Shown here: positions 2,324 through 64,000 of the stretch, piece by piece
How positions within the stretch are numbered: the first letter of the stretch is position 1
How the letters are laid out: every line of letters begins with the position of its first letter
Source of the DNA: Escherichia coli 042
GTDB taxonomy: Bacteria > Pseudomonadota > Gammaproteobacteria > Enterobacterales > Enterobacteriaceae
Assembly (NCBI RefSeq): GCF_000027125.1
Contig: NC_017626.1
Strand: one strand, 5' to 3'
DNA length: 64,000 nucleotides
Translations under genes and position numbers: made by a program
The notes under the pieces: model-generated
What the model was told of the DNA's origin: nothing
What the model saw: only the letters and a program-made list of their open reading frames with translations
Database searches by the model: none

Positions 2324-3640
2324 ATGTCTGTAACACGTATAAGAGTGAAAGAGCGCGACGCTATCATTCAGTCACTTAAGTCGGGAGTAACGCCAAGAAT
2401 AGGTATTCAGCATATCCAGGTTGGCCGCGTGAATGAGATAACCGCCCTCCATCAGGATATTGAACGGATTGCTGATGGCGGGGCAAGCTTCAGACTTATC
2501 ATTGGTGAGTACGGTTCCGGGAAAACATTCTTTTTAAGTGTTGTACGGTCTATTGCGTTAGAGAAGAAGCTGGTCACGGTCAGTGCAGACCTTTCTCCCG
2601 ACAGACGTATCCACTCATCGGGAGGTCAGGCTCGTAATCTCTACTCAGAGCTTATGAAAAATATGTCCACCAGAAACAAACCAGATGGCAATGCATTACT
2701 TAGCGTTGTGGAAAGGTTTGTTACTGAGGCAAGGAAGGAAGCTGATGCGAACGGCTCCCTGGTCTCATCCGTTATTCATAAACGCCTTGCTGCTTTGTCA
2801 GATATGGTGGGAGGATATGACTTTGCGAAGGTCATTGACGCATTCTGGCGCGGGCATGAGCAGGATAACGAAACCTTAAAATCCAATGCTATTCGCTGGT
2901 TGCGGGGCGAGTACACCACAAAAACTGATGCCCGTAATGATCTTGACGTCCGAACGATTATCTCAGACGCCTCGTTCTATGATTCTTTGAAGTTGATGAG
3001 CCTTTTTGTCCGTCAGGCAGGCTATGCCGGACTTTTAGTTAGCCTCGACGAGATGGTGAACCTCTTCAAGTTGAATAATACGCAAGCGAGAACGGCCAAC
3101 TACGAACAAATTTTGCGGATTCTGAATGACTGCCTGCAAGGCTCCGCCGAAAATATTGGTTTTATCCTCGGGGGGACGCCAGAATTTCTTTTCGATCCAC
3201 GTAAGGGGCTCTACAGCTATGAAGCGCTCCAGTCGCGTCTGGCAGAAAACCGATTCGCACAGAAAGCTGGCGTGATTGACTACTCGTCCCCCACGCTGCA
3301 TCTTGCCAGCCTCACTCCTGAGGAACTGTATATTTTACTGAAAAACCTTCGTCATGTTTATGCTGGTGGAGATCCCGTAAATTATCTGGTGCCAGATGAT
3401 GCTCTGACCGGGTTTCTGCATCACTGCAGCAAAACCATCGGAGATGCTTACTTTCGAACTCCCCGCAATACCATAAAAGGTTTTCTGGATATGCTGGCTG
3501 TGCTGGAACAAAACAGAACGATGAACTGGCAACCCCTCATTGAGGGGGTGGCGATTGAAGAAGACAAGCTCAGCGATATGGATGATGCCATTGTGGAGGA
3601 AAGTGATGACGATGATGGCCTGGCGAATTTCAGATTATGA
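2324..3640 (+). CDS. P-loop NTPase (Walker A GEYGSGKT, Walker B-like LLVSLDEM); candidate SngB-like ATPase
   Basis: 438-aa ORF with clear Walker A motif; stop overlaps the downstream helicase start (ATGA overlap at 3637-3640), implying translational coupling. Confidence 0.6.
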   Translation: MSVTRIRVKERDAIIQSLKSGVTPRIGIQHIQVGRVNEITALHQDIERIADGGASFRLIIGEYGSGKTFFLSVVRSIALEKKLVTVSADLSPDRRIHSSGGQARNLYSELMKNMSTRNKPDGNALLSVVERFVTEARKEADANGSLVSSVIHKRLAALSDMVGGYDFAKVIDAFWRGHEQDNETLKSNAIRWLRGEYTTKTDARNDLDVRTIISDASFYDSLKLMSLFVRQAGYAGLLVSLDEMVNLFKLNNTQARTANYEQILRILNDCLQGSAENIGFILGGTPEFLFDPRKGLYSYEALQSRLAENRFAQKAGVIDYSSPTLHLASLTPEELYILLKNLRHVYAGGDPVNYLVPDDALTGFLHHCSKTIGDAYFRTPRNTIKGFLDMLAVLEQNRTMNWQPLIEGVAIEEDKLSDMDDAIVEESDDDDGLANFRL

Positions 3641-5835: not shown

Positions 5836-5851
5836 ACTGGATATGTAGTCA

Positions 5852-5884
5852 GGGTATAAATAAGTATTTATACCCTTATTTTTT
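5852..5884. terminator. Rho-independent terminator between the convergent helicase gene and the minus-strand cassette
   Basis: Perfect 11-bp inverted repeat gggtataaata / tatttataccc with a 2-nt loop, followed by ttatttttt. Confidence 0.5.
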
Positions 5885-6206
5885 ACTTACCTGTGGACTT
5901 ACTTGGCTTTAATCCCGGAGTATTGCCAGGAGTATCTTTATTATCGCGTCGGCGTTGATCCGGTTTTCCTGTTGACTTAGCAATTGGTTTTGGACCTGGT
6001 TTTAGACCCATGATAGTTATCCTTCGAGATGTAAGAGGAATGCCCTCAACATTGGTATATTCTATACTGAGAAATTTTTCAATGGGAATGTTCAACGGCC
6101 GAATGATTAACTCGATATTGTGAGCAATGTCTTTTTTTGGCACAGAGCGAACCGTTAGATTGCGCGTATTTTTATGGAAGGAGATCATCCAATAACGGTT
6201 ATTCAC
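5883..6206 (-). CDS. Hypothetical ORF (low-complexity, Pro/Lys-rich C-terminus); possibly a gene remnant
   Basis: 107-aa ORF; 5' end region (MISFHKNT) carries one copy of a 25-bp repeat also found at 10940-10964; 3' end overlaps the terminator T-tract. Confidence 0.25.
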   Translation of the reverse strand: MNNRYWMISFHKNTRNLTVRSVPKKDIAHNIELIIRPLNIPIEKFLSIEYTNVEGIPLTSRRITIMGLKPGPKPIAKSTGKPDQRRRDNKDTPGNTPGLKPSKSTGK

Positions 6207-6270
6207 CGATCTCCTTTATGGTAATACGAACCTGTTTTTTTAATATATAGAAAAATTACTCCGACATGTT

Positions 6271-6915
6271 TTATCTTTTTGAAATCAGGACATTTACCAA
6301 CTCACTTAAAACTCTCTTTTGTTCTTCATCCTGAAGATATTGAATCCGGAATTTAATCTCTTCTGCAACCCGCCTTGTATCGGACTCATTAAGTATTTTT
6401 GTTATTCGCTGTCTCTGATGTTCAGGCTGGTCTTCCATATTTCGTAAAACCAGATGAAATAATATATCATAAAGTGCGCAATGCCATGAATAACCATCAT
6501 TGGTTAGAATAAGCTCCCAAACCCGCTCCTGTTCGGCAATAAGCTGCAGAACAAAGGATTCAACCTGTTCTGATTGTCCGGGGACAACCCGGTATAGCGG
6601 CGCAATCACAGCAAAAAACAGTTCATTTAGCCAGGATTCCGCCTCTTTCTCGCTCCTGAAAGATGGACAGTTCTGTATTCTTCGTTCGTATTCACGGGTA
6701 ACCTGCTCCGGAATATCCTCCGGCGGTGTCAGCCACTTATTCCTGAGCAATATACTGGTTGACGGATGGCAGCAGGCTATTTCAGCAATAATTTCACGTA
6801 ATGCCTCCGGGCTGAATTTCTTCAGCTGATTGTAGTGCTCCCGGGTAAAACCATGATCATCGCATAAAAGTTGCCATGTCATTGATATACTGTTTGCCAT
6901 TCCTTTCTTCATCAT
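6271..6915 (-). CDS. Hypothetical protein, last gene of the ibrAB-containing cassette
   Basis: 214-aa ORF co-directional with and 20 bp downstream of the PerC-like ORF; no family recognised by eye. Confidence 0.45.
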   Translation of the reverse strand: MMKKGMANSISMTWQLLCDDHGFTREHYNQLKKFSPEALREIIAEIACCHPSTSILLRNKWLTPPEDIPEQVTREYERRIQNCPSFRSEKEAESWLNELFFAVIAPLYRVVPGQSEQVESFVLQLIAEQERVWELILTNDGYSWHCALYDILFHLVLRNMEDQPEHQRQRITKILNESDTRRVAEEIKFRIQYLQDEEQKRVLSELVNVLISKR

Positions 6916-6935
6916 TAATACCTGTTACCTGAATA

Positions 6936-7244
6936 TCAACAGACCGGTGTACCTTTTCTGAATACCTCCCCGGACGGACTGGCAATCCCCATTCGCCTCA
7001 GCGTGGCATCTGCAGCTTTCGCCACTTCGCTGATATCCAGCTTTTCAGGTAGCGGCGGGGACGATATCTGCGCCAGGCAATAATTCCTGCGCAACAACAA
7101 CCACTCCCGTTGTGCTTCTGTACATTCAACATTTCCCATAACAAAAAGCCAGCGGGCGGAAGCTCTGCGCCAGCAACCCGCAGCCTCCAGCTTCTGTGCA
7201 ACCATGTCTTCCACGACTTCCGGGGTACTCTTTTTCCTGCTCAA
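6936..7244 (-). CDS. Small PerC-like putative transcriptional regulator
   Basis: 102-aa ORF; segment LEAAGCWRRASARWLFVM resembles the PerC/Pch family core as recalled. 40 bp downstream of the ibrB-like gene. Confidence 0.4.
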   Translation of the reverse strand: MSRKKSTPEVVEDMVAQKLEAAGCWRRASARWLFVMGNVECTEAQREWLLLRRNYCLAQISSPPLPEKLDISEVAKAADATLRRMGIASPSGEVFRKGTPVC

Positions 7245-7283
7245 AACATTAACTCACTGAAATAATATACATATATGACGGTC

Positions 7284-7922
7284 TCAGCGAACCGTCCATG
7301 CCGGACTGAAATCCTCTTCCAGAAACAGCTCCGTCAGCCCGCTAATCTGTTTCAACCTGAGAACTTCATCCTGGTCCATACCCAGCTCCGTACCAATACG
7401 TTCATCCGTCCAGCCCAGCCGCGACAGGTCCCTGACAATATCAGACATTGAAGTTATCTGGTGCTTCCCCCTGGCCCGGTTATGTCTAATGGTTGCAGCA
7501 ATACGTGAGGCCTGTCCCTTTCTTTCCGGATTAATACAGGTCACTGGCAACCAGCCCTTCAGGCGTTTTCCCGTACCTGCTTCCCTGCCCAGTAATTGAC
7601 GATGAAAACCATCCACGACCAGATAATGCTCCTTCTCTTCCGAGACAACCACAGGCTGCGTGAACCCATCCTGCTCCAGTGAATGTTTCAGCAGTTTCTT
7701 CTCACCCGGCGCCATGACATTGGGGTTATAATCGTTGGCCACCACCTCATCTGCTTTCACCCACAGCACACAGTCCACAGGCTCCTGTGCAAATGGACTG
7801 ACCTCATGAAGCACCCTGCGCAGATGATTCAGGGCCTGTATGGCCTCTTCTTCTGGTCGTTCCTGGCTGAAGTACTGACGAATCATGTTGCTCAGTATCT
7901 CCGGTGTCACAGAATCCCCCAT
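7284..7922 (-). CDS. ibrB: ParB/Srx-fold (ParB-like nuclease domain) protein, IbrB-like
   Basis: 212-aa ORF with a ParB-like core (YLVVDGFHRQ); start overlaps the upstream ibrA-like stop by 16 bp. Confidence 0.7.
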   Translation of the reverse strand: MGDSVTPEILSNMIRQYFSQERPEEEAIQALNHLRRVLHEVSPFAQEPVDCVLWVKADEVVANDYNPNVMAPGEKKLLKHSLEQDGFTQPVVVSEEKEHYLVVDGFHRQLLGREAGTGKRLKGWLPVTCINPERKGQASRIAATIRHNRARGKHQITSMSDIVRDLSRLGWTDERIGTELGMDQDEVLRLKQISGLTELFLEEDFSPAWTVR

Positions 7923-9139
7923 TCCTTCCTCCTTTCTTTCATACGCTGCAGATAACGTTCATAGTGCCGGGGTTTGTTCGGACTGAAGGAGAGGGTACGG
8001 CACCAGAAATCATTCTTTATGAGAGTCTTACAGATACGTCGCCAGGACGGAATATCCCGGCTCCCCAAGTCATTCTCCTGTTCATCCGGGATGTCATCCG
8101 GGAAGCCCCGCGTCTGATACCAGCGCAGATAGACAGCTATCTTGTTGCGGTAATGTTCTGCCGTTCTTTCCGGCATCACATCCAGCAGAAACATCGCATA
8201 GCTGCGCCAGGTATGATGGGCTGGTTTTGATATGCGCTTACGCAGGGCAAAATAAGCCCCGCTTTCATTGGCATAAAGTGCCCCGCTGGCAGCCCCTGAC
8301 ACCCGCTCACACATCCTGGCCCAGGTTTCCGGCTCCAGAACATGGTAAAGCCACAGTCCCTTACGTTGTTCAGGACCAAAAGGTTCACAGACACGCATGT
8401 TGCGTAACGGTACGCCGGCACGGTACATCAGGTCATACAGGGGATTGTAGATGGCACGGGTTCTGGTGTGATATATCCAGATATCACGAGTTTTCCAGTC
8501 ATACAGCGGATACATGGTGTAGTAAAACCCTTCAGGCGATGCCGTGGTCCAGGGCTTATCATCGGCGTATCTCAGTTTGCGCTGGGATACCAGTCCCATG
8601 AACCGGTTAAGGGACTCATCCGCACGGACACCGGTCAGTACTGCCACACCACATTTATTGTCTGCAAACCAGGAAGAAAATGCCGGAACAAATTCTTCAA
8701 ACGTCATGGCATACCGGTAAAAGGGAAAATACGCCATATCTGTAATGGCCCCCTCCGGTGGCTGGCGAACCCACTTCACACCAGACTCCCAGCATATCCA
8801 CTCCGGCTGAAACTGAGAAACACCGTTTACCGTGGTCAGGGGAAGTGCCACCCAGTAAAAGGTTTCCGTCACATCATGGTACATTTCCCGCATCTTCTGA
8901 ATATGTTCAATGGTGCACTGGTACTGAGCCTCCCAGTCAATGAACAGTACAGAGAAACGACGTTTTTTCCTGCGGGCCACATCAGCCAAAAGATGGAAAA
9001 GCACGGTGGAATCTTTACCACCGGAAAAAGAGAGACAAACTGATGGAAATGTTTCAAAAATCCACTCAATACGAGCAATTGCTGCACGCAGAACATTCTC
9101 TCCAGTAAGGACTTTCTCCGTTAAAAAATTATCATTCAT
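7907..9139 (-). CDS. ibrA: PAPS reductase-family PP-loop ATP-pyrophosphatase-like protein, IbrA-like
   Basis: 410-aa ORF with PP-loop motif SFSGGKDST near the N-terminus; size and pairing with a ParB-like gene match the ibrA/ibrB pair. Confidence 0.75.
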   Translation of the reverse strand: MNDNFLTEKVLTGENVLRAAIARIEWIFETFPSVCLSFSGGKDSTVLFHLLADVARRKKRRFSVLFIDWEAQYQCTIEHIQKMREMYHDVTETFYWVALPLTTVNGVSQFQPEWICWESGVKWVRQPPEGAITDMAYFPFYRYAMTFEEFVPAFSSWFADNKCGVAVLTGVRADESLNRFMGLVSQRKLRYADDKPWTTASPEGFYYTMYPLYDWKTRDIWIYHTRTRAIYNPLYDLMYRAGVPLRNMRVCEPFGPEQRKGLWLYHVLEPETWARMCERVSGAASGALYANESGAYFALRKRISKPAHHTWRSYAMFLLDVMPERTAEHYRNKIAVYLRWYQTRGFPDDIPDEQENDLGSRDIPSWRRICKTLIKNDFWCRTLSFSPNKPRHYERYLQRMKERRKEWGIL

Positions 9140-9279
9140 TTATTTTTACTTTATGCAAAAGAAACCTGTTTATGCTTTCAACATATAGCAACAAACATTA
9201 AATGACGTTTAATTAGCCACTACTAAAATTGCTTACTTTCATCCTGATGAACATATAAAACATATTACAAACATATTTA

Positions 9280-39487: not shown

Positions 39488-40649
39488 TCCTGAAGAAGAT
39501 GAACAGTTTATACTCTTTAAACTGTTCCCTTAATTTTAGAAAAACAGTTTGTGTAAGTGCATGCTCCAACATTCTGAAGGCATTATTTCTTACAATACAT
39601 CATAATCATTGGCAGATCCTCATCTGAATCAAAACACCACAACCAATCATCACACTTTTTCTGAAAAGAGCCTTATGATGAAGATAATCACCTTACGCTG
39701 AGAAAAAACACTAGGGCCAGTTAATCACCTTATCAATCTCGCCGTTACAAAATCATCCATAAGCCATTTAACAGTGTTATCGCAAACTCACAGTAAATCG
39801 CATCAGGTTACCTCAATCGGATTTGAGTTAATTCACTGGGCTTTACGTAAAGATACTTTTCTCAGGTTAACGACTAAAACACGAAAACTCAGAAAAGGTT
39901 AAACACAGGTTCAGTAAAATCGAATATCATCTTGATTGCTTAAACAGGACAGAGGGTTTTGTAGTGAGGTTAACTGATTTTAGCGATCGTAAAAAAAGGA
40001 CTAACAAATTTACTAAACTGGATGTGTATCAGACAAAGCAATGTGTGTAGCAATGCTTAATGAAAATACTTGTATGATTGTCTATGAAAGTACGTGTATA
40101 ACACTTACTGAAATGCTTAGTAAAAATACGTGTATATAGTATCATACCGACATTCTCAACTCTTCCAAACATCCATGCAGACTGAATGTTGGTTTCAGTT
40201 TTTCACGGCCAGCATGGATCTTTACTGGTCAAAAAACAGACATGTTTACTCTGGAATTATTTTTCTGATTCCGTCTTCAGAACAACAAAAACTCGTGATA
40301 ACTCTACAACAAACTATCGTAATTGGCTTCTGTAACCCCGTCACTTTTCCTAAGAAATGTGCCCCCATATAATGCGGGAGAGATAAGTCATCGTATACAG
40401 GAAACACTGCCAATCATAACATAACGTCATTCAATAATTTTTATCCATAATCAGATGAGCATATCATGATTATTGAATATTATGATATATAACTCATATG
40501 AATGTGTTATTATCTGTAAGCGTTAAGCATCACATTGCATAACCATACTAAGCTGGATAATCATCAACGTTTTTATATGTAACTCATTGAAATTAATTAT
40601 ATGTTTTTTGTGGATAATTAATATGTAATGTGAAATTAATATTTTCACA

Positions 40650-41873
40650 TCATGAACGCCATTTAAAATTACCATCCTGAATATCATATGACAATATATT
40701 TTCACTAAAGCATGAATTGTATATATCTATTAACTCTGGAAAATTATCAGGATTCACCTTCAAATTCACTTGAATGTTACGTTTAATTTCACCCAGCAGT
40801 TCTTCATGTGTGGATTTTATTATCCCTTTCTCATAATCGATAAATACACACATGTTCTTTATGAATTCAAAACCTTTTCCTGTATACAGTTTAATGAATG
40901 CCACCAGAGCAAACATTTCAAGATATAGCCATAATGCCACGTTAGTTTTTTGCAAAGTATAAAAAATTGAATTCGCCACTCTTTTACTTATTGCTCTTTT
41001 ATACTGTGATCGGGCAAGATTCAGTAGCGGAAGCTCTCGTTCAATAAATGAATGTGAAAAGACTGGATAAATTGATGTAGGAAACCTTTCAGGTCTTATG
41101 ATATTTTCTATTTCCACCATAAATCTATCCATAGAAAGAAAGTCACTTTCTTTTTTTATTCTGGTATAGAGACCGCCTTTATTCCTTTCTGAGGTTTGTT
41201 TTCGTGCTATCCCCCCCAACACTTTCTCTAATTGTTTATTTATCTTCGTATAATTAAATACAACCATTCTTCTTATCATCCTCGGAAGGATAATAATATC
41301 AGTGCTTGAATCACTTGAGCGGCAATTATTATTTATCCATGCAACTTCAAGTTGCAGTATCGGAACATTAACTTTTCTGGGGTGAATATCTCTCTGATAT
41401 CGTTTTTTGTATGCGTTTTCATTAAGATATTCTCTGCTGTAGAGAAACTTATAGCAATATAATCTGATAATATCTTTTATGTAAAATTTAAATAGTTCAC
41501 CTGTAACAGATATATGTTTTCTGCTCAGTAACTCCTGTGTATTAAGCCATTCCCGTGACCGAAGCACACCCTTGTGAAAACTTTTTCTTACTTGCTTTGA
41601 AGCACGCCATTGATGTAATATTTTTGCGTCCTCAATAATTCTCTTTCCCGTTTTATTTTTTGCAGCATCTCTTACTCTATAAAATATCTCCCAGTCCAGA
41701 CTTTTGTCATATCTACTAATTATACGACAAATATTCCTGACCCGACGATTCTCTTTATTTCGCTTCCATAGCTTATAATGATCATCGCATAACCTTAAGG
41801 CATTTGCCTCATCAAATTCTGAAACAGGATTACTGCATTTTTTATTCCGACAGATACCTTTGTTTTTAGCCAT
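40650..41873 (-). CDS. Orphan AT-rich hypothetical protein with N-terminal Cys cluster (CRNKKC...C..H)
   Basis: 407-aa basic ORF, much lower GC than its flanks, isolated between two ~1-kb non-coding stretches. Confidence 0.5.
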   Translation of the reverse strand: MAKNKGICRNKKCSNPVSEFDEANALRLCDDHYKLWKRNKENRRVRNICRIISRYDKSLDWEIFYRVRDAAKNKTGKRIIEDAKILHQWRASKQVRKSFHKGVLRSREWLNTQELLSRKHISVTGELFKFYIKDIIRLYCYKFLYSREYLNENAYKKRYQRDIHPRKVNVPILQLEVAWINNNCRSSDSSTDIIILPRMIRRMVVFNYTKINKQLEKVLGGIARKQTSERNKGGLYTRIKKESDFLSMDRFMVEIENIIRPERFPTSIYPVFSHSFIERELPLLNLARSQYKRAISKRVANSIFYTLQKTNVALWLYLEMFALVAFIKLYTGKGFEFIKNMCVFIDYEKGIIKSTHEELLGEIKRNIQVNLKVNPDNFPELIDIYNSCFSENILSYDIQDGNFKWRS

Positions 41874-53114: not shown

Positions 53115-54794
53115 GTGATGAAATTATTTAAATCAATTTTACTGATTGCCGCCTGTCACGCGGCGCAGGCCAGCGCGGCCATTGATATTAACGCTGACCC
53201 AAACCTTACAGGAGCCGCGCCGCTTACCGGTATTCTGAACGGGCAACAGTCGGATACGCAAAACATGAGCGGCTTCGACAATACCCCGCCGCCCGCACCG
53301 CCGGTGGTAATGAGCCGTATGTTTGGTGCTCAACTTTTCAACGGCACCAGCGCGGATAGCGGTGCGACGGTAGGATTCAACCCTGACTATATTCTGAATC
53401 CGGGTGATAGCATTCAGGTTCGCTTGTGGGGTGCGTTCACCTTTGATGGTGCATTACAGATTGATCCCAAAGGTAATATTTTTCTGCCAAACGTTGGTCC
53501 GGTGAAAGTTGCCGGGGTTAGCAATAGTCAGTTGAACACTCTGGTTACATCAAAAGTGAAGGAAGTGTACCAGTCCAACGTCAACGTCTACGCCTCCTTA
53601 TTACAGGCGCAGCCAGTAAAAGTGTACGTGACCGGATTTGTGCGTAATCCTGGTCTGTATGGCGGTGTGACGTCTGATTCGTTACTCAATTATCTGATCA
53701 AGGCTGGCGGCGTTGATCCAGAGCGCGGAAGTTACGTTGATATTGTGGTCAAGCGCGGTAACCGCGTGCGCTCCAACGTCAACCTGTACGACTTCCTGCT
53801 GAACGGCAAACTGGGGCTTTCGCAGTTCGCCGATGGTGACACCATCATCGTCGGGCCGCGTCAGCATACTTTCAGCGTTCAGGGCGATGTCTTTAACAGC
53901 TACGACTTTGAGTTCCGCGAAAGCAGCATTCCCGTAACGGAAGCGTTGAGCTGGGCGCGCCCTAAGCCTGGCGCGACTCACATTACGATTATGCGTAAAC
54001 AGGGGCTGCAAAAACGCAGCGAATACTATCCGATCAGTTCTGCGCCAGGCCGTATGTTGCAAAATGGCGATACCTTAATCGTGAGCACTGACCGCTATGC
54101 CGGCACCATTCAGGTGCGGGTTGAAGGCGCACACTCCGGTGAACATGCCATGGTACTGCCTTATGGTTCCACTATGCGTGCGGTTCTGGAAAAAGTCCGT
54201 CCGAACAGCATGTCGCAGATGAACGCGGTTCAGCTTTATCGCCCATCAGTGGCTCAGCGTCAGAAAGAGATGCTGAATCTCTCGCTGCAAAAGCTGGAGG
54301 AAGCATCACTTTCTGCCCAGTCATCCACCAAAGAAGAAGCCAGCCTGCGAATGCAGGAAGCACAACTGATCAGCCGCTTTGTGGCGAAAGCACGCACCGT
54401 GGTTCCGAAAGGTGAAGTGATCCTCAACGAATCCAATATTGATTCTGTTCTGCTTGAAGATGGCGACGTCATCAATATTCCGGAGAAAACATCGCTGGTT
54501 ATGGTTCATGGCGAAGTGCTGTTCCCGAACGCGGTGAGCTGGCAGAAGGGTATGACCACCGAGGATTACATCGAGAAATGTGGTGGCCTGACGCAAAAAT
54601 CGGGTAACGCCAGAATTATCGTCATTCGTCAGAACGGTGCAGCCGTCAACGCAGAAGATGTGGATTCACTCAAACCGGGCGATGAGATTATGGTTCTGCC
54701 GAAATATGAATCGAAAAATATTGAAGTTACCCGTGGTATTTCCACCATCCTCTATCAGCTGGCGGTGGGTGCAAAAGTGATTCTGTCTTTGTAA
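53115..54794 (+). CDS. kpsD: Capsule polysaccharide export outer-membrane/periplasmic protein (OPX family)
   Basis: 559-aa ORF with N-terminal signal peptide; synteny kpsE-kpsD-kpsU. Confidence 0.9.
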   Translation: MMKLFKSILLIAACHAAQASAAIDINADPNLTGAAPLTGILNGQQSDTQNMSGFDNTPPPAPPVVMSRMFGAQLFNGTSADSGATVGFNPDYILNPGDSIQVRLWGAFTFDGALQIDPKGNIFLPNVGPVKVAGVSNSQLNTLVTSKVKEVYQSNVNVYASLLQAQPVKVYVTGFVRNPGLYGGVTSDSLLNYLIKAGGVDPERGSYVDIVVKRGNRVRSNVNLYDFLLNGKLGLSQFADGDTIIVGPRQHTFSVQGDVFNSYDFEFRESSIPVTEALSWARPKPGATHITIMRKQGLQKRSEYYPISSAPGRMLQNGDTLIVSTDRYAGTIQVRVEGAHSGEHAMVLPYGSTMRAVLEKVRPNSMSQMNAVQLYRPSVAQRQKEMLNLSLQKLEEASLSAQSSTKEEASLRMQEAQLISRFVAKARTVVPKGEVILNESNIDSVLLEDGDVINIPEKTSLVMVHGEVLFPNAVSWQKGMTTEDYIEKCGGLTQKSGNARIIVIRQNGAAVNAEDVDSLKPGDEIMVLPKYESKNIEVTRGISTILYQLAVGAKVILSL

Positions 54795-54803
54795 GGAGTT
54801 GAG

Positions 54804-55544
54804 ATGAGCAAAGCAGTTATTGTCATTCCGGCTCGCTATGGCTCCTCGCGCCTGCCGGGTAAGCCACTGCTCGATATTGTTGGTAAACCGATGATCCAGC
54901 ATGTTTACGAGCGTGCGTTACAGGTGGCGGGCGTCGCAGAAGTTTGGGTGGCAACAGACGATCAGCGTGTTGAAAAGGCCGTGCAGGCATTTGGCGGGAA
55001 AGCCATCATGACGCGCAACGATCATGAATCCGGCACCGATCGGCTGGTCGAGGTGATGCATAAAGTCGAGGCAGATATCTACATTAACCTGCAGGGCGAC
55101 GAACCAATGATTCGCCCGCGGGATGTAGAAACGCTGCTACAAGGAATGCGTGATGATCCCGCGTTGCCAGTGGCAACGCTATGCCACGCGATTTCTGCCG
55201 AAGAAGCGACCGAGCCAAGCACGGTAAAAGTAGTGGTAAATACCCGCCAGGATGCGCTTTATTTCAGCCGTTCGCCGATTCCGTATCCGCGTAATGCTGA
55301 AAAAGCGCGCTACCTGAAACACGTTGGTATTTACGCTTATCGTCGCGATGTGCTGCAAAACTACAGTCAGTTACCAAGGACGGCATTAAGTCAAATCGAG
55401 GAACTGGAGCAGCTACGGTTAATGAACGCGGGGATCAACATTCGCACATTTGAGGTTGCCGCAACCGGTCCGGGCGTCGACACCCCGGCATGCCTTGAAA
55501 AGGTGCGTGCCCTGATGGCGCAAGAACTGGCTGAAAACGCATGA
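54804..55544 (+). CDS. kpsU: CMP-Kdo synthetase (3-deoxy-manno-octulosonate cytidylyltransferase), capsule-specific
   Basis: 246-aa ORF with KdsB-like N-terminus ([19 protein letters not shown]). Confidence 0.9.
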
Positions 55545-57568
55545 TTGGCATTTACTCGCCTGGCATCTGGCGTATTCCGCATCTGGAGAAATTTCTGGCA
55601 CAACCGTGCCAGAAACTTTCTCTGCTGCGTCCTGTTCCGCAAAACGTCGATGCTATCGCCGTGTGGGGACATCGTCCCAGCGCGGCGAAACCAGTCGCCA
55701 TCGCCAAAGCAGCGGGAAAACCCGTCATTCGTCTGGAAGATGGATTTGTGCGTTCGCTGGATCTTGGCGTCAATGGCGAGCCGCCGCTTTCTCTGGTGGT
55801 GGATGATTGTGGCATTTACTACGATGCCAGCAAGCCTTCAGCACTGGAGAAACTGGTACAGGATAAAGCCGGAAATACAGCTCTGATAAGCCAGGCCAGA
55901 GAAGCGATGCACACCATCGTGACCGGGGATTTGTCGAAATATAACCTGGCACCTGCGTTTGTGGCTGATGAGTCAGAACGTTCAGACATCGTTCTGGTTG
56001 TCGATCAGACATTTAATGATATGTCAGTGACGTATGGCAATGCTGGCCCGCATGAGTTTGCTGCCATGCTGGAAGCCGCGATGGCGGAAAATCCTCAAGC
56101 CGAAATTTGGGTGAAGGTGCACCCAGATGTACTGGAAGGAAAGAAAACAGGTTATTTCGCCGATCTGCGCGCCACGCAACGAGTACGTTTAATTGCCGAG
56201 AATGTCAGCCCGCAGTCGCTGTTGCGACACGTTTCCCGGGTTTACGTCGTGACCTCCCAGTACGGCTTTGAAGCCTTGCTGGCAGGAAAACCGGTGACAT
56301 GCTTCGGCCAGCCCTGGTATGCAGGCTGGGGCTTAACCGACGATCGCCATCCGCAGTCCGCTTTGTTATCTGCCCGACGCGGTTCTGCCACGCTGGAGGA
56401 ACTTTTTGCCGCTGCATACCTGCGTTACTGTCGCTATATCGATCCGCAAACGGGAGAAGTAAGCGATCTATTTACCGTGCTGCAATGGCTGCAATTACAA
56501 CGTCGACATCTGCAACAGCGTAATGGTTATTTATGGGCGCCAGGCTTAACGCTGTGGAAGTCGGCAATCCTGAAACCTTTCTTGCGTACCGCAACAAACA
56601 GACTGAGTTATTCACGCCGTTGTACTGCGGCGACGGCTTGCGTGGTATGGGGTGTAAAGGGAGAACAGCAATGGCGAGCCGAAGCGCAACAAAAATCACT
56701 GCCGTTATGGCGAATGGAAGATGGTTTTCTGCGTTCATCCGGACTTGGCTCTGACCTGCTGCCGCCGCTATCGTTGGTACTGGATAAACGCGGGATCTAC
56801 TATGACGCCACGCGCCCCAGCGACCTGGAAGTCCTGCTTAATCACAGCCAGTTAACGCTGGCGCAGCAGATGCGAGCTGAAAAATTACGCCAGCGACTGG
56901 TTGAAAGCAAACTGAGCAAATACAACCTAGGGGCCGATTTTTCTCTGCCTGCCGAGGCCAAAGATAAAAAAGTTATCCTGGTGCCGGGTCAGGTAGAAGA
57001 CGATGCCTCGATTAAAACCGGCACAGTCTCGATTAAGAGCAACCTTGAGTTATTACGCACAGTACGCGAGCGTAATCCGCACGCTTACATTATTTATAAA
57101 CCGCACCCGGATGTACTGGTGGGGAATCGCAAGGGCGATATTTCGGCAGAATTGACTGCTGAACTTGCTGACTATCAGGCACTGGACGCAGATATTATTC
57201 AATGCATTCAGCGCGCAGATGAAGTGCACACCATGACATCATTGTCCGGGTTTGAAGCGTTATTACATGGCAAGCAAGTTCATTGTTACGGCCTGCCCTT
57301 CTATGCCGGTTGGGGTTTAACCGTCGATGAACATCACTGCCCGCGCCGCGAACAAAAATTAACGTTAGCAGATTTGATCTATCAGGCGTTGATTGTTTAT
57401 CCAACCTATATCCACCCAACACGGCTACAACCTATTACGGTTGAAGAGGCGGCGGAATATTTGATCCAGACGCCGCGCAAGCCGATGTTTATTACCCGAA
57501 AAAAAGCGGGGCGAGTAATACGCTATTACCGCAAATTAATTATGTTCTGCAAGGTCAGATTTGGCTAA
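55541..57568 (+). CDS. kpsC: Capsule Kdo-linker transferase
   Basis: 675-aa ORF with internal duplication (two similar halves, each with a YAGWGLT motif); start overlaps the kpsU stop. Confidence 0.9.
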
Positions 57569-57602
57569 ACAATTTCATAGTTGACTATTACGCAAATTAT
57601 TT

Positions 57603-58850
57603 ATGCAAGACAACGCACTAACCATTTTATTATCGGGTAAAAAATATCTGCTATTGCAGGGGCCAATGGGACCCTTTTTCAATGACGTCGCCGAATGGTT
57701 AGAGTCATTAGGCCGTAACGCTGTGAATGTTGTCTTCAACGGCGGGGATCGTTTTTACTGCCGCCATCGACAATACCTGGCTTACTACCAAACGCCGAAA
57801 GAGTTTCCCGGTTGGCTGCGAGATCTCCACCGACAATATGACTTTGATACCATCCTCTGCTTTGGTGACTGCCGCCCATTGCACAAAGAAGCAAAACGCT
57901 GGGCAAAGTCGAAAGGGATCCGCTTTCTGGCATTTGAAGAAGGATATTTACGCCCGCAATTTATAACCGTTGAAGAAGGCGGAGTGAACGCATATTCATC
58001 GCTACCGCGCGACCCGGATTTTTATCGTAAGTTGCCAGATATGCCTGCGCCGCACGTTGAGAACTTAAAACCTTCAACGATGAAACGTATAGGTCATGCG
58101 ATGTGGTATTACCTGATGGGTTGGCATTACCGTCATGAGTTCCCTCGCTACCGCCACCACAAATCATTTTCCCCGTGGTATGAAGCTCGTTGCTGGGTTC
58201 GTGCATACTGGCGCAAGCAACTTTACAAGGTAACACAGCGTAAGGTATTGCCGAGGTTAATGAATGAGCTGGATCAGCGTTATTATCTTGCCGTTTTGCA
58301 GGTGTATAACGATAGCCAGATTCGTAACCACAGCAATTATAACGATGTGCGTGACTATATTAATGAAGTCATGTACTCATTTTCGCGTAAAGCGCCAAAA
58401 GAAAGTTATTTGGTGATCAAACATCATCCGATGGATCGTGGTCACAGACTCTATCGACCATTAATTAAGCGGTTGAGTAAGGAATATGGCTTAGGTGAGC
58501 GCGTCATTTATGTGCACGATCTCCCGATGCCGGAATTATTACGCCACGCAAAAGCGGTGGTGACGATTAACAGTACGGCGGGGATCTCTGCGTTGATTCA
58601 TAATAAACCACTTAAAGTGATGGGCAATGCCCTGTACGACATCAAAGGCTTAACGTATCAAGGGCATTTGCACCAGTTCTGGCAGGCCGATTTTAAACCG
58701 GATATGAAACTGTTTAAGAAGTTTCGGGGGTATTTATTGATGAAGACGCAGGTTAATGCGGTTTATTATGGGGGAGTAAGCATTGGAGAAAAAAATAGGT
58801 ATGAAAGTGATTACTCCTATTATTCAAAGAAACCGCATCATAATGACTAA
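57603..58850 (+). CDS. kpsS: Capsule Kdo transferase
   Basis: 415-aa ORF, last region 1 gene, convergent with region 2. Confidence 0.85.
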   Translation: MQDNALTILLSGKKYLLLQGPMGPFFNDVAEWLESLGRNAVNVVFNGGDRFYCRHRQYLAYYQTPKEFPGWLRDLHRQYDFDTILCFGDCRPLHKEAKRWAKSKGIRFLAFEEGYLRPQFITVEEGGVNAYSSLPRDPDFYRKLPDMPAPHVENLKPSTMKRIGHAMWYYLMGWHYRHEFPRYRHHKSFSPWYEARCWVRAYWRKQLYKVTQRKVLPRLMNELDQRYYLAVLQVYNDSQIRNHSNYNDVRDYINEVMYSFSRKAPKESYLVIKHHPMDRGHRLYRPLIKRLSKEYGLGERVIYVHDLPMPELLRHAKAVVTINSTAGISALIHNKPLKVMGNALYDIKGLTYQGHLHQFWQADFKPDMKLFKKFRGYLLMKTQVNAVYYGGVSIGEKNRYESDYSYYSKKPHHND

Positions 58851-58958
58851 TAATTAGATAATCTACTAATTTTAATCAAAAAAATAATTATGTAAAACTA
58901 ACTATATGGATTAATGTGTTCATTATCTTTAGTTGCTAAAAATTAGCAAGTTATATAT

Positions 58959-60551
58959 TTATTTACACCTATAATTTTCGGGTGATGACATTGCCCAGGT
59001 TACTCCAGAAGATATGATGTTTGCCGGTGCCCCGGATATAATCTGATTAGATGTAAAAAATTTATTTTCCACAATACAACCGGCAGACACATAACATTCA
59101 TCAGAAATATGTGTTCCTTTTAGCAACATCACACGTGACCCAATCCAAACCCTATCCCCTATATTTATAGGCTGGCCCGGATTTAATAAGTAGCCATTGC
59201 TATCAAGAAGGGAATGCTCGTCCTGACAACAAATCTTAACATCGCTACCTATAACGCAACCATCTCCTATTTTACAACAATTATCGCCATTCAAATAAAT
59301 ATCTAGCTGCTTATCAATAATGCATGAGTTTCCAATACATACTTTTCCACCGATATTATTATTCAATATTGATAAGTTATTATATTTTGAATTTCCTAAA
59401 TGAACATAACCTCCACTATTTAATAAAATTGTAGAATCCTTAAAAGTGGCTCCATCTTCAATTACCACCATATTATTAACACCACTGAATTTCAACATTA
59501 AACCAGAAACAGATTGATATGTACCATCTGATACATACTCTATTTTATTTCCATATATAATTGTATTCTTATTAACTTTAAAATCTTTATACTTATGAAA
59601 TAATGAATATAATTCTTTAATTTTAGATTCAGATTTTGAACATTGCAAAAGTTTAATATCACCTGTAGAAATCTTGTTTATTTTTTCAATCCCAATGGAA
59701 TCTTTCCCATAAATATCATATCCAGTTGCATGATCTATATATCGTTTTACGTACTCTTCAAAGTTTATAGACTCATTATAAAATGAATAACAATGATCGG
59801 TTTTGATAAAGTTAAGGTTCAAATGTTTTATTACACTAGGGTATAAGGGAACGTGAATATGATTTTTAGAAAAAGGATATATATCGATATTTCTTTTTTT
59901 ATTAATTCCCAAACAATCAAGAATGCTATTTGTTAACCATAAAAAATAATCGTTTGTTGGGTGATTTACTGTCACCGACATATAATTACTGTAAATAGCA
60001 TTTTTTAAATATGGTACTGAAGGTATATCAACTTTATTTAATTTTTCACGTTGGTTTAGATCATTAAATGTTTTTGTTAAATTGTCCGTTATTGTTTTTT
60101 CATCATAAAAGTCAGGATCAGAAACGATTTTTATAATGTTTTCTGTGCGAATATTTGCTAACAGCAAAGAATTTATATTTTTATCGCCGTATGGAAATAT
60201 TCCTGAAGGAGATATCGAGTATTTCCTATTTGGCCTAATTACAGGATTTTGTGAGTGCTGGGGGAAATAAGCAGAAAGCCAAAAATTAGGAATGGATATT
60301 CGAATGCAATCCGAACGTAACTTACTACAAATATGATCTGTGCAAAAAAAAGGATCAAAGGTTGACGATACATGTTGATATATAAAAAGATCAATTTTGG
60401 ATAATGTATCATCATCCAAATAAGACTTATCTTTTAGATACACATCTTTAACTTTAACTAGATTGAAATAATTTATAAAATCAGTTTGTTCAAGAAAATT
60501 TTGTAGATGTGTATGCTGGCAATTCCCATAAATCATACATAGTTTTTTCAT
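58959..60551 (-). CDS. Capsule region 2 protein with C-terminal hexapeptide-repeat (acyltransferase-like) domain
   Basis: 530-aa very AT-rich ORF; C-terminal ~180 aa show a left-handed beta-helix repeat pattern. Confidence 0.5.
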   Translation of the reverse strand: MKKLCMIYGNCQHTHLQNFLEQTDFINYFNLVKVKDVYLKDKSYLDDDTLSKIDLFIYQHVSSTFDPFFCTDHICSKLRSDCIRISIPNFWLSAYFPQHSQNPVIRPNRKYSISPSGIFPYGDKNINSLLLANIRTENIIKIVSDPDFYDEKTITDNLTKTFNDLNQREKLNKVDIPSVPYLKNAIYSNYMSVTVNHPTNDYFLWLTNSILDCLGINKKRNIDIYPFSKNHIHVPLYPSVIKHLNLNFIKTDHCYSFYNESINFEEYVKRYIDHATGYDIYGKDSIGIEKINKISTGDIKLLQCSKSESKIKELYSLFHKYKDFKVNKNTIIYGNKIEYVSDGTYQSVSGLMLKFSGVNNMVVIEDGATFKDSTILLNSGGYVHLGNSKYNNLSILNNNIGGKVCIGNSCIIDKQLDIYLNGDNCCKIGDGCVIGSDVKICCQDEHSLLDSNGYLLNPGQPINIGDRVWIGSRVMLLKGTHISDECYVSAGCIVENKFFTSNQIISGAPANIISSGVTWAMSSPENYRCK

Positions 60552-60779
60552 AATGCACTACCAAAACATATGACTTTAATATTAGCGAAGCATCGAATAT
60601 AATAAAAATTACTCAAGCCATTAAGAGTTGATATTAATTAATAACGATTGCATTTCGCTATGTAATTTATCTTATATTAATAGGAGGCATCGTTTATTGT
60701 AGATGCCTCCCATTAATGGGATTATATCACTTTATATTTCATGAAGGCTTTAGCATTTCATACAAAAACAACATTAGAA

Positions 60780-63700
60780 TTAATTTAGATATTTCACATA
60801 CATTTCACGCCCCTTATCCCAAATGATTTTTGTAATTTCACTTTTATAAAACTTGCGTTTGAAATATATAAAGGTATTCCTCTTCAAATTGGCTTCTTTT
60901 GGAACTGACTCCGGGACAGGACTAGGTTGCGTTTTGCTCTGTTCTTTATTTGGAATGATCTTTTTTACTGGTTTCGTAGCGGTAGTTGACTTCTTAAGTG
61001 GTGGATAAATTACAGGGAAATGTTTATCCTCATATAGAGGGTCGTCAGCGACATACTGATTTAATAACAATTGGTCTGTAGTATTACTGCAAAGATAAGA
61101 CAATGGGTAAACGAATGCATCCCGTGTTTGAGAGTTAATATACTCCCATTTGCCTTTAAATAAAGAAACGTAATCTTTACAGAACTCCTTCATATATACT
61201 TGTGATTTTAAAGTTAAAAGAGATGTTGCTGTAATTTCAGACGGAAAAATAATTGGTTTTACTGCTGATTCTGATTTCTCATAACCGTAACAGGTAGATG
61301 TTAAAGCATCTGATAATAGTAATTCATAAAATGATGGGAGAAATACTCGAAGCCCACGTCTAAAAGGATTAAATGTATCAACTAAGTAACTATTTATGTC
61401 ATTTACACATTTATGTTTCCTTTCACGGAACATAAATAAAGGTATATCAATCCCCATAAGATCAGCTAATATATCACGACTGGTTCCTCTTGCGCCCAAG
61501 TCGAATACAGCGAATTTTTTATTTTCGGTAATGCTAGTAATATATTCAATCAAATACTTATTTTTTTTATTTACTTCATTACTACATGAAGCAAAATCAT
61601 AGTATTTATGTATAAACTGTGAAATTTCATGTTTATTTTTACTACTGTCAGCAGACAAGTTCAGCTTCAACTCTTGCACTAACTTTTTAGCTATTCTATC
61701 ATTTGAAACGTCTATATCAAATACGTAATCTAAAAACTTTTTAACATTTAACTTTGAATTATAAAGAGACAGCAGCGTGCCTTTTAATGCTTTATTGTTA
61801 TATGCAGACAAGGTAGCTGTTCTGGATATATAAAAGTATACACTTTTAGGTAACTGATGATTATACAGTGTATCATTTATATAATTGTAAACATCAAAAA
61901 CGACTCTGGAATCTCTTGAAGAAAAAAGTATTTTCTCATAATTGCTATTTTTTGTATTTTGTATAAGCCAGTGAGTGAGACTTAAAACTAATGGTCCAAA
62001 AATATAATAACCAAGAAGCGCACTTGAATTATTGATAGAAGTTTTATGATCAAATGGAACGAATGGATTATCAAATAGCTTATTAGCGATCATTCCAAGA
62101 TAAAATGAAAAGTTTTCTTTATAGACAAAACCTAATACATCAGGCTTAAACAGATTAGTTTTTCTAAATTCATCTATTGCCTTAGGATAATGCTCTGCCA
62201 GTAATCCATTATCGGTAGCTCTCTGAACATCAGATTTTAAATTATCCCCGATGAATAGAGTTTTAGAAGCATCAAAACCTTCTTTCAATAATATAAGCTT
62301 GAATAAGGAACCATTATATTTTACTTTATTGTACTCACATGAGATATAAACTGGTATCTGATTAATTTCATATCCATTACTTATTAAAATATCTTTTAAT
62401 AAGTCTTCCGGTAAGTACATATCAGAAGCAACAAATAAATTTTTATGATGGATTTTAGCCAGTGTAAAATATTCTAACATTGTTTCTCTTGGAGTGAGTA
62501 ACTGGCGTTCCATTTCACATTCTATGTTTTTTATTTTACTTATTGTATCATCTGTAAATCCAGTACTTTCTTGTAATTTATTATATATCTCATCTAGCGT
62601 TACTTCTATTTTACCTTGTCTAGCCAAGCTTTCTGCATGAATTCTTGTTGTTGAAAAATTAAAACTCCTTAATTTTGTTACTTTATATATATCTTCTTCT
62701 ATTAGATTAAATAGATCTGTTGGCTTGACCAACGGACGGCATAACAAAGTATCAAAAATATCAAAACCAATATTTCTTATATTATCATTAATTAAATAAC
62801 CAAGTAATTTTTCAAATTTAGTTTGCTCATAGTTTATATGTACATTATTCTGTAAAAGAAGCTGCTGAGAAAGTCTCGCTTTATATCCACGCAATGTTCC
62901 CAATTGCGGAAGATACTTAATATATTCGTTATTTTCAATGTTTTTTATTATTTGTTTTAAATATAAGAAACTATTTTTTTCATTACGTAAAAAACGAGTG
63001 TTAACTTTATGTGTTAATACGTACTTAATTATTTTATTACTTATATCAATATAATCAGATGAAAGAGTTGCATTGGTTGATAAGTAATTATACACATGTT
63101 CAACAGTACCAATTGAAAATTTGCTATTAGGGCTATTTCCATAGCTAAAAATTGGCTTCCCTAAAAGCATGGCTGGCATAAATATATTTGAGTAAATATT
63201 TATAACAGCATCAACATGAGGAAGTACTCTTATAGAAATATCATTATCAATAGATGACACTTTATCGAGATTAATTATCCTTTCATTATTATCAATATAA
63301 TGATCGTTTTCTGTTCTATCTAACGAGTGTTTTGAATAAACTATTGCGCAATCATTTGGAATTTGTTCTAAAAGAAACTGTAAAAAAGCTGCATTAGATG
63401 AAAATCCAGAATATTTTTTAAATCGTAATGAAGGAAAATTTCCCGGATAGAATATCAAATATTTAAATTTACTGTCAGGATCGAGAGTTTTTCTATTTAT
63501 TTGTGTTTCAAATATAATGTTATCTTGATAATATTTTTTTAAATTTTGTATATCGATAACATCCTCTGGTACTATTTCAACTTTTTTTATAGCTTCAAAA
63601 AAGGCATCATCATATTTTTTGTCTTTTGTTGAAACATTAAATAACACATCGGGGTTGTTATTTTCCAATCGCCAGAAACCAGTATGAGAGCCCTCAAGCA

Positions 63701-63917
63701 AGACACTATCTTTAAAAACCTCTGCAAAAATTTCAGAACAAAATTCCCAGTAAATAACAATATCAGGATTTAAATTACCCAGCTTATTCCTAAAATAATC
63801 AACCAGATGTTCTTTTAGCTTTTTTGAAATGTCATTGCTAATAACCATCTCAACTGTCGAATCATAATAATCCAATATATTTCTTATTTCTGAGTCTGGT
63901 ATATTAATCACTGTCAC
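60780..63917 (-). CDS. Large capsule region 2 protein; putative polymer-synthesising transferase with HAD-like motif
   Basis: 1045-aa AT-rich ORF with DxDxT-like motif (FDIFDTLLCRP); function inferred only from position in kps region 2. Confidence 0.45.
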   Translation of the reverse strand: MTVINIPDSEIRNILDYYDSTVEMVISNDISKKLKEHLVDYFRNKLGNLNPDIVIYWEFCSEIFAEVFKDSVLLEGSHTGFWRLENNNPDVLFNVSTKDKKYDDAFFEAIKKVEIVPEDVIDIQNLKKYYQDNIIFETQINRKTLDPDSKFKYLIFYPGNFPSLRFKKYSGFSSNAAFLQFLLEQIPNDCAIVYSKHSLDRTENDHYIDNNERIINLDKVSSIDNDISIRVLPHVDAVINIYSNIFMPAMLLGKPIFSYGNSPNSKFSIGTVEHVYNYLSTNATLSSDYIDISNKIIKYVLTHKVNTRFLRNEKNSFLYLKQIIKNIENNEYIKYLPQLGTLRGYKARLSQQLLLQNNVHINYEQTKFEKLLGYLINDNIRNIGFDIFDTLLCRPLVKPTDLFNLIEEDIYKVTKLRSFNFSTTRIHAESLARQGKIEVTLDEIYNKLQESTGFTDDTISKIKNIECEMERQLLTPRETMLEYFTLAKIHHKNLFVASDMYLPEDLLKDILISNGYEINQIPVYISCEYNKVKYNGSLFKLILLKEGFDASKTLFIGDNLKSDVQRATDNGLLAEHYPKAIDEFRKTNLFKPDVLGFVYKENFSFYLGMIANKLFDNPFVPFDHKTSINNSSALLGYYIFGPLVLSLTHWLIQNTKNSNYEKILFSSRDSRVVFDVYNYINDTLYNHQLPKSVYFYISRTATLSAYNNKALKGTLLSLYNSKLNVKKFLDYVFDIDVSNDRIAKKLVQELKLNLSADSSKNKHEISQFIHKYYDFASCSNEVNKKNKYLIEYITSITENKKFAVFDLGARGTSRDILADLMGIDIPLFMFRERKHKCVNDINSYLVDTFNPFRRGLRVFLPSFYELLLSDALTSTCYGYEKSESAVKPIIFPSEITATSLLTLKSQVYMKEFCKDYVSLFKGKWEYINSQTRDAFVYPLSYLCSNTTDQLLLNQYVADDPLYEDKHFPVIYPPLKKSTTATKPVKKIIPNKEQSKTQPSPVPESVPKEANLKRNTFIYFKRKFYKSEITKIIWDKGREMYVKYLN

Positions 63918-64000
63918 ATTATTCTTTATTAAATTCTGTTTTATTTCTCTTTTTTCCAGAACGGAATCCAGGGCTAAATAGGTGACTTTTAGATCTTTTT

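Follow-up and report, generated by a model that had tools for sequence, protein, structure and literature searches.

A probable K74-type group 2 capsule locus in Escherichia coli 042 and its predicted three-module polymerase

We examined the end (positions 58959-64000) of a 64,000-nucleotide stretch of Escherichia coli 042 DNA (NC_017626.1; the window), which holds the first two of the three serotype-specific region 2 genes of an E. coli group 2 capsule locus, that is, one of the kps type that depends on an ATP-binding cassette (ABC) transporter. These genes encode a two-domain putative O-acetyltransferase and a large capsule polymerase. The locus probably belongs to the K74 type of the kTYPr catalogue, within the K74/K109/K95/K135 family, an assignment made by sequence comparison to which we give a probability of about 0.8. 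An original prediction, made from the letters of the window, had described these genes as region 2 of an unidentified K serotype, a description now superseded by the match to kTYPr K74 in gene content, published identities and cluster length.

The region 2 genes and their setting

The region 2 genes lie on the minus strand, convergent with the plus-strand kpsFEDUCS genes of region 1 (Table 1), and their DNA is strongly AT-rich, with a GC content of 0.27-0.32 across 59000-64000 versus ~0.52 over region 1. The remainder of the locus can be seen in the genome of E. coli AF40 (NZ_OZ547043). Over 58851-64000 this genome and the window are 99.9% identical, and it carries, in order, kpsFEDUCS, the acetyltransferase gene, the polymerase gene, a cytidylyltransferase gene, kpsTM and gsp (type II secretion). 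Region 2 of AF40 comprises three genes, encoding proteins of 530, 1112 and 231 amino acids (aa), the last annotated as a "cytidylyltransferase domain-containing protein". Its location between region 1 and kpsMT (with kpsT and kpsM seen in AF40), its convergent orientation and its low GC content are all those expected of region 2 in a group 2 kps locus. Much of this had been read correctly from the window itself, including the AT-rich convergent region with its two minus-strand open reading frames (ORFs), the typical region 1, which the AF40 annotation bears out, and the ending of the window inside region 2, beyond which lie the cytidylyltransferase gene, kpsT and kpsM. A consensus scan of 58700-61000 returned no more promoter-like sites than shuffled sequence, and between kpsS and the acetyltransferase gene, which converge, it detected no terminator.

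Table 1. Features of the capsule locus in the window, with the basis on which each was delimited.
Feature	Positions	Strand	Basis
Region 1, kpsF-E-D-U-C-S	50855..58850	+	ORFs; annotation of the 99.9% identical AF40 stretch
530-aa two-domain putative capsule O-acetyltransferase (K74_7 equivalent; WP_024261641.1)	58959..60551	-	ORF
Left-handed beta-helix hexapeptide-repeat O-acetyltransferase domain (predicted), residues ~352-522	58986..59498	-	phmmer, Pfam, NCBIfam
WcbI-like N-terminal domain, residues 1-218	59898..60551	-	Pfam PF18588
Intergenic spacer, polymerase gene/acetyltransferase gene	60552..60779	.	ORF coordinates
Capsule polymerase gene (K74_8 equivalent; WP_001197964.1), residues 41-1112 of 1112 in window	60780..64000	-	Open frame
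C-terminal tail, residues 1023-1112: Lys/Pro/Ser/Thr-rich linker and conserved basic helix-like end	60783..61052	-	Sequence
Predicted PRPP-dependent ribofuranosyl-5-phosphate transferase module (CriT-like), residues ~656-1022	61053..62153	-	Bcs3 CriT alignment
Predicted HAD-type phosphoribosyl phosphatase module (CrpP-like), residues ~446-655	62154..62783	-	Bcs3 CrpP alignment
Beta-Kdo-transferase-like (GT99/GT107/GT140-fold) domain, residues ~1-445 (41-445 in window)	62784..64000	-	AlphaFold and Foldseek
[quoted passage not shown]

The protein encoded next to region 1 is 100% identical to an AF40 protein annotated as a [quoted passage not shown]. Its N-terminal domain matches the Pfam WcbI family over residues 4-218 (E 1.3e-31; 110.3 bits, cut-off 29.2). 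The hexapeptide repeats that had been recognized in its translation are supported by Pfam Hexapep (a marginal match of 27.7 bits, cut-off 27), by WbbJ/WcaF-like matches in NCBIfam and by phmmer, in which residues 352-522 match the polysialic acid O-acetyltransferase 3jqy_B (E 5e-13) and the domain also matches maltose and galactoside acetyltransferases. The C-terminal domain resembles the polysialic acid O-acetyltransferases of the NeuO/OatWY type (PDB 3jqy, 2wlc), and the N-terminal domain, by its Pfam match, resembles Burkholderia WcbI (PDB 4bqn). Unlike in those proteins, the two domains are fused here in a single polypeptide, and the expected substrate is a polymer of ribofuranose (Ribf) and Kdo. 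Since an acetyltransferase is encoded in region 2, the capsule polymer would be expected to carry O-acetyl substituents.

Modules of the polymerase

The polymerase gene runs off the end of the window. A program-made list of ORFs gave it as 60780-63917, with 1045 aa from a GTG start, a length that is an artefact of the window end because the frame is open to base 63998. The AF40 polymerase has 1112 aa, and its residues 41-1112 (1072 aa) are 100% identical to the window translation. Searches with Pfam and NCBIfam gave only sub-threshold HAD matches and placed the protein in no curated family above threshold; its domain identities were drawn instead from PDB sequence and fold searches. From these, the polymerase is predicted to be built of three modules, namely a Kdo-transferase-fold domain, a HAD phosphatase and a PRPP-dependent ribofuranosyltransferase. 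The earlier description of a 1045-aa multidomain protein with a HAD-like motif therefore keeps its HAD domain, weak in the family databases and clear against the Bcs3 phosphatase (E 4.5e-18), and loses its length.

The second and third modules are homologous to the CrpP and CriT modules of Bcs3 from Haemophilus influenzae type b (PDB 8a0c, 9h50), with polymerase residues 451-1022 aligning to Bcs3 385-958 at the E value just given. The catalytic and PRPP-binding residues that we compared are those named in the Bcs3 paper (PMC10299916), and the key ones are conserved. In the CrpP-like module, D453 corresponds to the Bcs3 nucleophile D386 (HAD motif I) and K600 to K548 (the motif III lysine), and the motifs ASD (565-566) and GDN (624-626) are present. 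In the CriT-like module, S734-R735-D736 corresponds to S678-R679-D680, S765-R766 to S707-R708 and the loop G875-S880 to the loop 821-825; D873 stands for E818, an aspartate for a glutamate, and R712 is not conserved, aligning with T768. The SH3b region of Bcs3 beyond residue 958 has no match in the window polymerase, which ends instead in its own tail. The end motif of this tail is kept in polymerase homologues, and the tail may have a membrane or partner-binding role. TagF-like, CroT and Stealth modules are absent: where Bcs3 has the ribitol-phosphate transferase CroT, the window protein has the Kdo-transferase-fold domain.

This N-terminal domain (residues 1-447) was modelled with AlphaFold from an 18-sequence alignment as a modified GT-B domain, with a local confidence (pLDDT) of 91 and a predicted template modelling score (pTM) of 0.90. 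The top Foldseek match is the GT99 beta-Kdo transferase domain of WbbB (8csf, see also PDB 5fa0; E 1.2e-8; template modelling scores 0.55/0.62), at ~9% sequence identity, and further best matches are KpsC of GT107 (6mgd) and the E. coli K13 polymerase KrkA of GT140 (9yfz, 9yfy); TagF appears only as a remote match at rank 46. The invariant pair W124-E125 is found where a beta-strand ends, as is the YE motif of KrkA with its general base E102, and the invariant H264 aligns with the histidine of the "HP" motif by which KrkA and KpsC bind cytidine monophosphate (CMP), the following residue being variable (S, H or P). Beta-furanosidic Kdo (beta-Kdof) and ribofuranose have been reported from the E. 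coli capsules K74 and K95, and from this Kdo content together with the fold similarity we infer that the N-terminal domain transfers Kdo.

At the level of sequence, phmmer and profile hmmsearch runs of the N-terminal domain against PDB sequences gave only chance matches to antibody light chains. KrkA was not hit, though 9yfz and 9yfy were in the searched PDB set, and hhalign of the N-terminal domain alignment against the KrkA N-terminal domain gave a probability of 0.9%. The nucleophile of WbbB is D232. The QxxxD motif of KrkA, QTLND (Q189xxxD193), is placed opposite TQ-INR209 by BLAST and opposite G-N-F-P-S230 by an alignment following predicted strand order. A conserved pair, Q206...D213, lies near the QxxxD-equivalent positions and could substitute for the motif.

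Assignment to the K74 type and its alternatives

The kTYPr catalogue, published in 2026, includes a set of K-types with a common ORF that exceeds 1,100 aa in length. Within it, K74, K109 and K95 have a common gene set, comprising a 530-aa WcbI protein (_7), a polymerase of ~1113 aa (_8) and a 231-aa cytidylyltransferase (_9), and K135 lacks the acetyltransferase and has a cytidylyltransferase of 227 aa. The published identities are ~97% for _7 (K74-K109 and K109-K95), ~98% for _9 and, for the _8 polymerase, 85.278% between K74 and K109, 78.636% between K109 and K95 and 72.956% between K95 and K135 (all from PMC13171606). The window locus has the K74 gene content: it encodes a WcbI protein of 530 aa and a HAD-containing polymerase of ~1112 aa, and near-identical genomes add a PF02348 protein of 231 aa. 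A K135-like locus that we also found is without the acetyltransferase and has a 227-aa cytidylyltransferase, in agreement with kTYPr.

Among 5426 complete E. coli genomes, 13 match the DNA of the finding and represent acetyltransferase-bearing loci of K74/K109/K95 type. They fall into three classes: class A, which is that of the window, at a DNA identity of at least 99% (3 genomes); class B at 89.5% (3 genomes); and class C at 87% (7 genomes). These counts agree with the original expectation of a less common K antigen. The class A genomes come from a human rectal swab (1 genome) and from ducks (2 strains). After reconstruction of the full-length polymerases, those of classes A and B were identical at 949 of 1113 positions, or 950 of 1114 (85.278%) when the stop column is counted, which is the value published for K74_8 and K109_8. 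The cytidylyltransferases of the two classes agree at 226 of 231 positions, and the 227 of 232 obtained with the stop column (97.845%) is likewise the published K74_9-K109_9 figure. The intact class B polymerase has 1113 aa, as does K109_8, and that of class A has 1112 aa. From kpsF to kpsM, the clusters span 15,692 (A), ~15,559 (B) and ~15,712 bp (C), beside kTYPr reference lengths of 15,693 for K74, 15,561 for K109 and 15,714 bp for K95 (PMC13171606). In the data compared, no difference between the window locus and kTYPr K74 (references GCF_036861065, NZ_JAYXLI010000001.1:275556-291248, and GCA_900636275) could be detected. The original prediction had named high identity to a well-characterised typed region 2 as the observation that would speak against it; high identity to a typed region 2 was reached, indirectly, for K74, through the published identities and the cluster length.

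Several points weigh against this reading of the locus as a K74-type Ribf-Kdo capsule. The K74 call comes from agreement with published numbers and not from direct alignment to a K74 reference, and the polymerase start and the cytidylyltransferase gene lie outside the window, their presence in 042 being deduced from near-identical genomes. In sequence, the N-terminal domain resembles no characterised Kdo transferase, nor does it show an evident QxxxD nucleophile motif of canonical form. Transfer and dephosphorylation of ribose 5-phosphate have been shown for two homologues of the polymerase only, Bcs3 and KrkA. Finally, the polymerase has one ribosyltransferase module only, versus the Rib-Rib-Kdo trisaccharide repeat that K74 is said to have, reportedly after Ahrens in 1988. 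The same mismatch between module and repeat is noted, and left unexplained, for K16 by kTYPr (PMC13171606).

The locus could instead be of a sister type, K95 or K109, with the same O-acetylated Ribf-Kdo backbone and another linkage and antigen. The indirect nature of the K74 assignment leaves room for this, as does the closeness of the three types, whose acetyltransferases (95-98% identical) and cytidylyltransferases (96-98%) are shared and whose main difference is in the polymerase (77-85%). We nevertheless consider it unlikely, as two genes, compared between classes A and B, give exactly the K74-K109 identities that were published, the class B polymerase has the length of K109_8, and the three cluster lengths fall within 1-2 bp of those of K74, K109 and K95; the window polymerase itself differs by 15% from the K109-type class B and by 19% from the K95-like class C.

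Two members of the sister classes carry damaged polymerase genes. In NZ_CP128875.1, the K109-type gene is frameshifted near its 5' end (9046-9210 of the stretch examined), which puts the annotated start 53 codons downstream (1060 aa); the intact 1113-aa version is found in GCA_029400775.4. The K95-like polymerase gene of GCA_958312255.1 (CATRTJ010000003.1; 4001-7339 of the stretch examined), at 97% DNA identity to class C, is split by an in-frame stop into fragments of 772 and 217 aa. Because the 90% cluster of the truncated product has 290 member sequences, a sizeable lineage may carry an inactivated K95-like capsule polymerase.

A second alternative is a locus of K13/K20/K23 type whose polymerase is an orthologue of KrkA and makes a beta-Ribf-(1-7)-beta-Kdop backbone with pyranosidic Kdo. 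KrkA of E. coli K13 is a protein of 1113 aa. Its N-terminal retaining Kdo transferase founded the family GT140, and its C-terminal part is composed of a ribosyltransferase and a phosphatase; the Ribf-Kdo repeat was built with KrkA in vitro, and the same backbone may be the product of several divergent clusters in E. coli (PMC12887879). The window polymerase has the same module order, size and N-terminal fold class, the glutamate of the WE/YE motif (E125 here, E102 in KrkA) and the histidine of the HP motif (H264) appear conserved, and an acetyltransferase gene adjoins it. Against the KrkA sequence taken from NCTC9022, however, identity is just 26% (E 1e-38), the likeness lying mainly in the C-terminal two-thirds (26-29% there). 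The N-terminal domains are unrelated in sequence and cannot be aligned by profile, and the QxxxD of KrkA is without a clear counterpart here. The K13 locus also differs in having no cytidylyltransferase gene and a different, CatB-related acetyltransferase of 245 aa. Kdo is pyranosidic in the K13 product but furanosidic in K74 and K95, and kTYPr lists K13_K23 and K74 as distinct types (PMC13171606). We regard a KrkA orthologue as very improbable.

That the polymer contains phosphate in the manner of a teichoic acid, with the HAD motif marking phosphate chemistry, is scarcely credible: the polymerase does have a HAD-like domain and its closest solved structure, Bcs3, does make a ribose-ribitol-phosphate polymer, but only CrpP and CriT (385-958) align, the TagF-like CroT is replaced, region 2 holds no gene for synthesis of a cytidine diphosphate (CDP)-polyol such as CDP-ribitol or CDP-glycerol, and a HAD module that removes ribose 5-phosphate, as in Bcs3 CrpP and KrkA, is no mark of phosphate in the product. 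Of the original suggestion of a "phosphate- or acyl-containing" antigen, the acyl part is therefore kept, on the strength of the encoded O-acetyltransferase, and the phosphate part is given up. A K1 (neu) or K5 (kfi) region 2 was rejected, the gene set differing from both, as had been recognized from the start.

The locus assigned here to K74 is already known at the sequence level, through 99.9% identical public genomes and as a K-type catalogued in 2026. The accessions of the matching genomes were not found in the supplements of the kTYPr and Kaptive papers, and the text of the Kaptive paper makes no mention of K74 or K95.

The surroundings of the locus are more variable. The 99.9% identity to AF40 extends from 50106 onward, and the upstream island at 44602-48790 is only 89-91% identical, so that two almost identical capsule loci have different flanks. 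An ISEc22 element (IS66 family), missing from the window, precedes kpsF in AF40. The match of the window to the K13 strain NCTC9022 stops at ~58773, with about 77 bases left to the stop codon of kpsS (58773-58850), so the two capsule types have different kpsS 3' ends. A second AT-rich stretch (GC ~0.31) lies at 40000-41500, ~10 kb upstream of kpsF.

The cytidylyltransferase and the proposed capsule

The 231-aa cytidylyltransferase, encoded just beyond the window, matches Pfam PF02348 with 29.5 bits (cut-off 22.6). It scores 15-16 bits against the NCBIfam KdsB models, below their cut-offs of 193-255, and shares 20% identity over 61 residues with KpsU of the same locus. It is closer to enzymes of the NeuA/PseF type, having the motifs VDIDT and Q-x-T-x-P (QVTNP). 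Elsewhere the gene forms a cassette with that of the polymerase, in the order cytidylyltransferase, polymerase and often then acetyltransferase, and all cassette cytidylyltransferases have P-L-Q in place of P-A-R. The cassette occurs in Avibacterium sp. (polymerase 58% identical), in Atlantibacter hermannii (55%; without the acetyltransferase), in Desulfovibrio sp. An276 (49%) and on an unassigned metagenome contig (37%); it was not found beside the most distant polymerase homologue (30%).

The Desulfovibrio sp. An276 locus encodes KdsA, a KdsB-KdsC fusion and, directly upstream of the polymerase homologue, a small NeuA-like cytidylyltransferase (2883-5995 of the stretch examined). The fusion means that the small enzyme is kept there beside a canonical CMP-Kdo synthetase. 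The K13 locus, whose product has pyranosidic Kdo, is without an extra cytidylyltransferase gene. Together, its retention beside KdsB and its absence from the K13 locus suggest that the small cytidylyltransferase has a role not redundant with that of KdsB, possibly tied to furanose Kdo.

Cytidylyltransferase homologues, at 55-73% identity, have a wider distribution than the polymerase. A homologue occurs in Helicobacter as well. One in Vibrio vulnificus lies in a Wzy-type (Wzc/rml) capsule locus, before two genes without a Pfam match (6001-7909 of the stretch examined). Another, in Pseudothauera rhizosphaerae, overlaps the end of a WaaZ_KDO_III-like gene in a lipopolysaccharide-core cluster with Kdo kinase-family genes (5048-6663 of the stretch examined). 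These two homologues are 56-65% identical and stand outside ABC-type capsule loci, and hhalign gave no relationship of the polymerase N-terminal domain to either the 399-aa neighbour in V. vulnificus or the WaaZ-like neighbour in Pseudothauera. A general role in local supply of CMP-Kdo fits this spread at least as well as a role dedicated to Kdof. A dedicated Kdof pathway would combine a NeuA-like enzyme, making a donor unlike the product of KdsB and KpsU (for example, a furanose form of CMP-Kdo), with a Kdo-transferase-fold domain that is without a canonical QxxxD motif and works otherwise than by the double displacement through an aspartate adduct of WbbB, KpsC and KrkA. Since the homologues occur widely and in other locus settings, we hold this proposal to be doubtful.

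Under the K74 assignment, the following route may be proposed. The NeuA/PseF-like cytidylyltransferase would make a CMP-activated Kdo donor, from which the N-terminal domain of the polymerase, its fold predicted and its activity inferred, would add Kdo to the growing chain. The CriT-like module would then transfer ribofuranose 5-phosphate from PRPP, and the HAD module would remove the 5-phosphate; these two steps are well supported, by homology to characterised enzymes and by the conserved catalytic and substrate-binding residues. The 530-aa WcbI and hexapeptide-repeat protein may O-acetylate the polymer. In group 2 capsules, the lipid-poly-Kdo anchor and export depend on KpsMT, KpsED, KpsC and KpsS, as they would here. 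We expect the product to be a heteropolymer of ribofuranose and Kdo that is O-acetylated and free of phosphodiester bonds.

In kind, the locus is an ordinary one, its Kdo/ribose polymerase architecture having recently been characterised in KrkA and Bcs3. The assignment would make the window typable as a rare K74-type group 2 capsule, which may be of use in epidemiology and in targeting by phages or vaccines. The K74 and K95 loci also offer a biochemical thread, in that an extra, NeuA-like enzyme is tightly linked to the polymerase across distant genera and the Kdo-transferase-like domain has no evident canonical nucleophile motif. We found no biosynthetic route described for the beta-Kdof of these capsules. 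If true, the hypothesis of a dedicated Kdof pathway would explain the beta-Kdof of the K74 and K95 capsules and would provide ulosonic-acid glycobiology with a new donor or mechanism.

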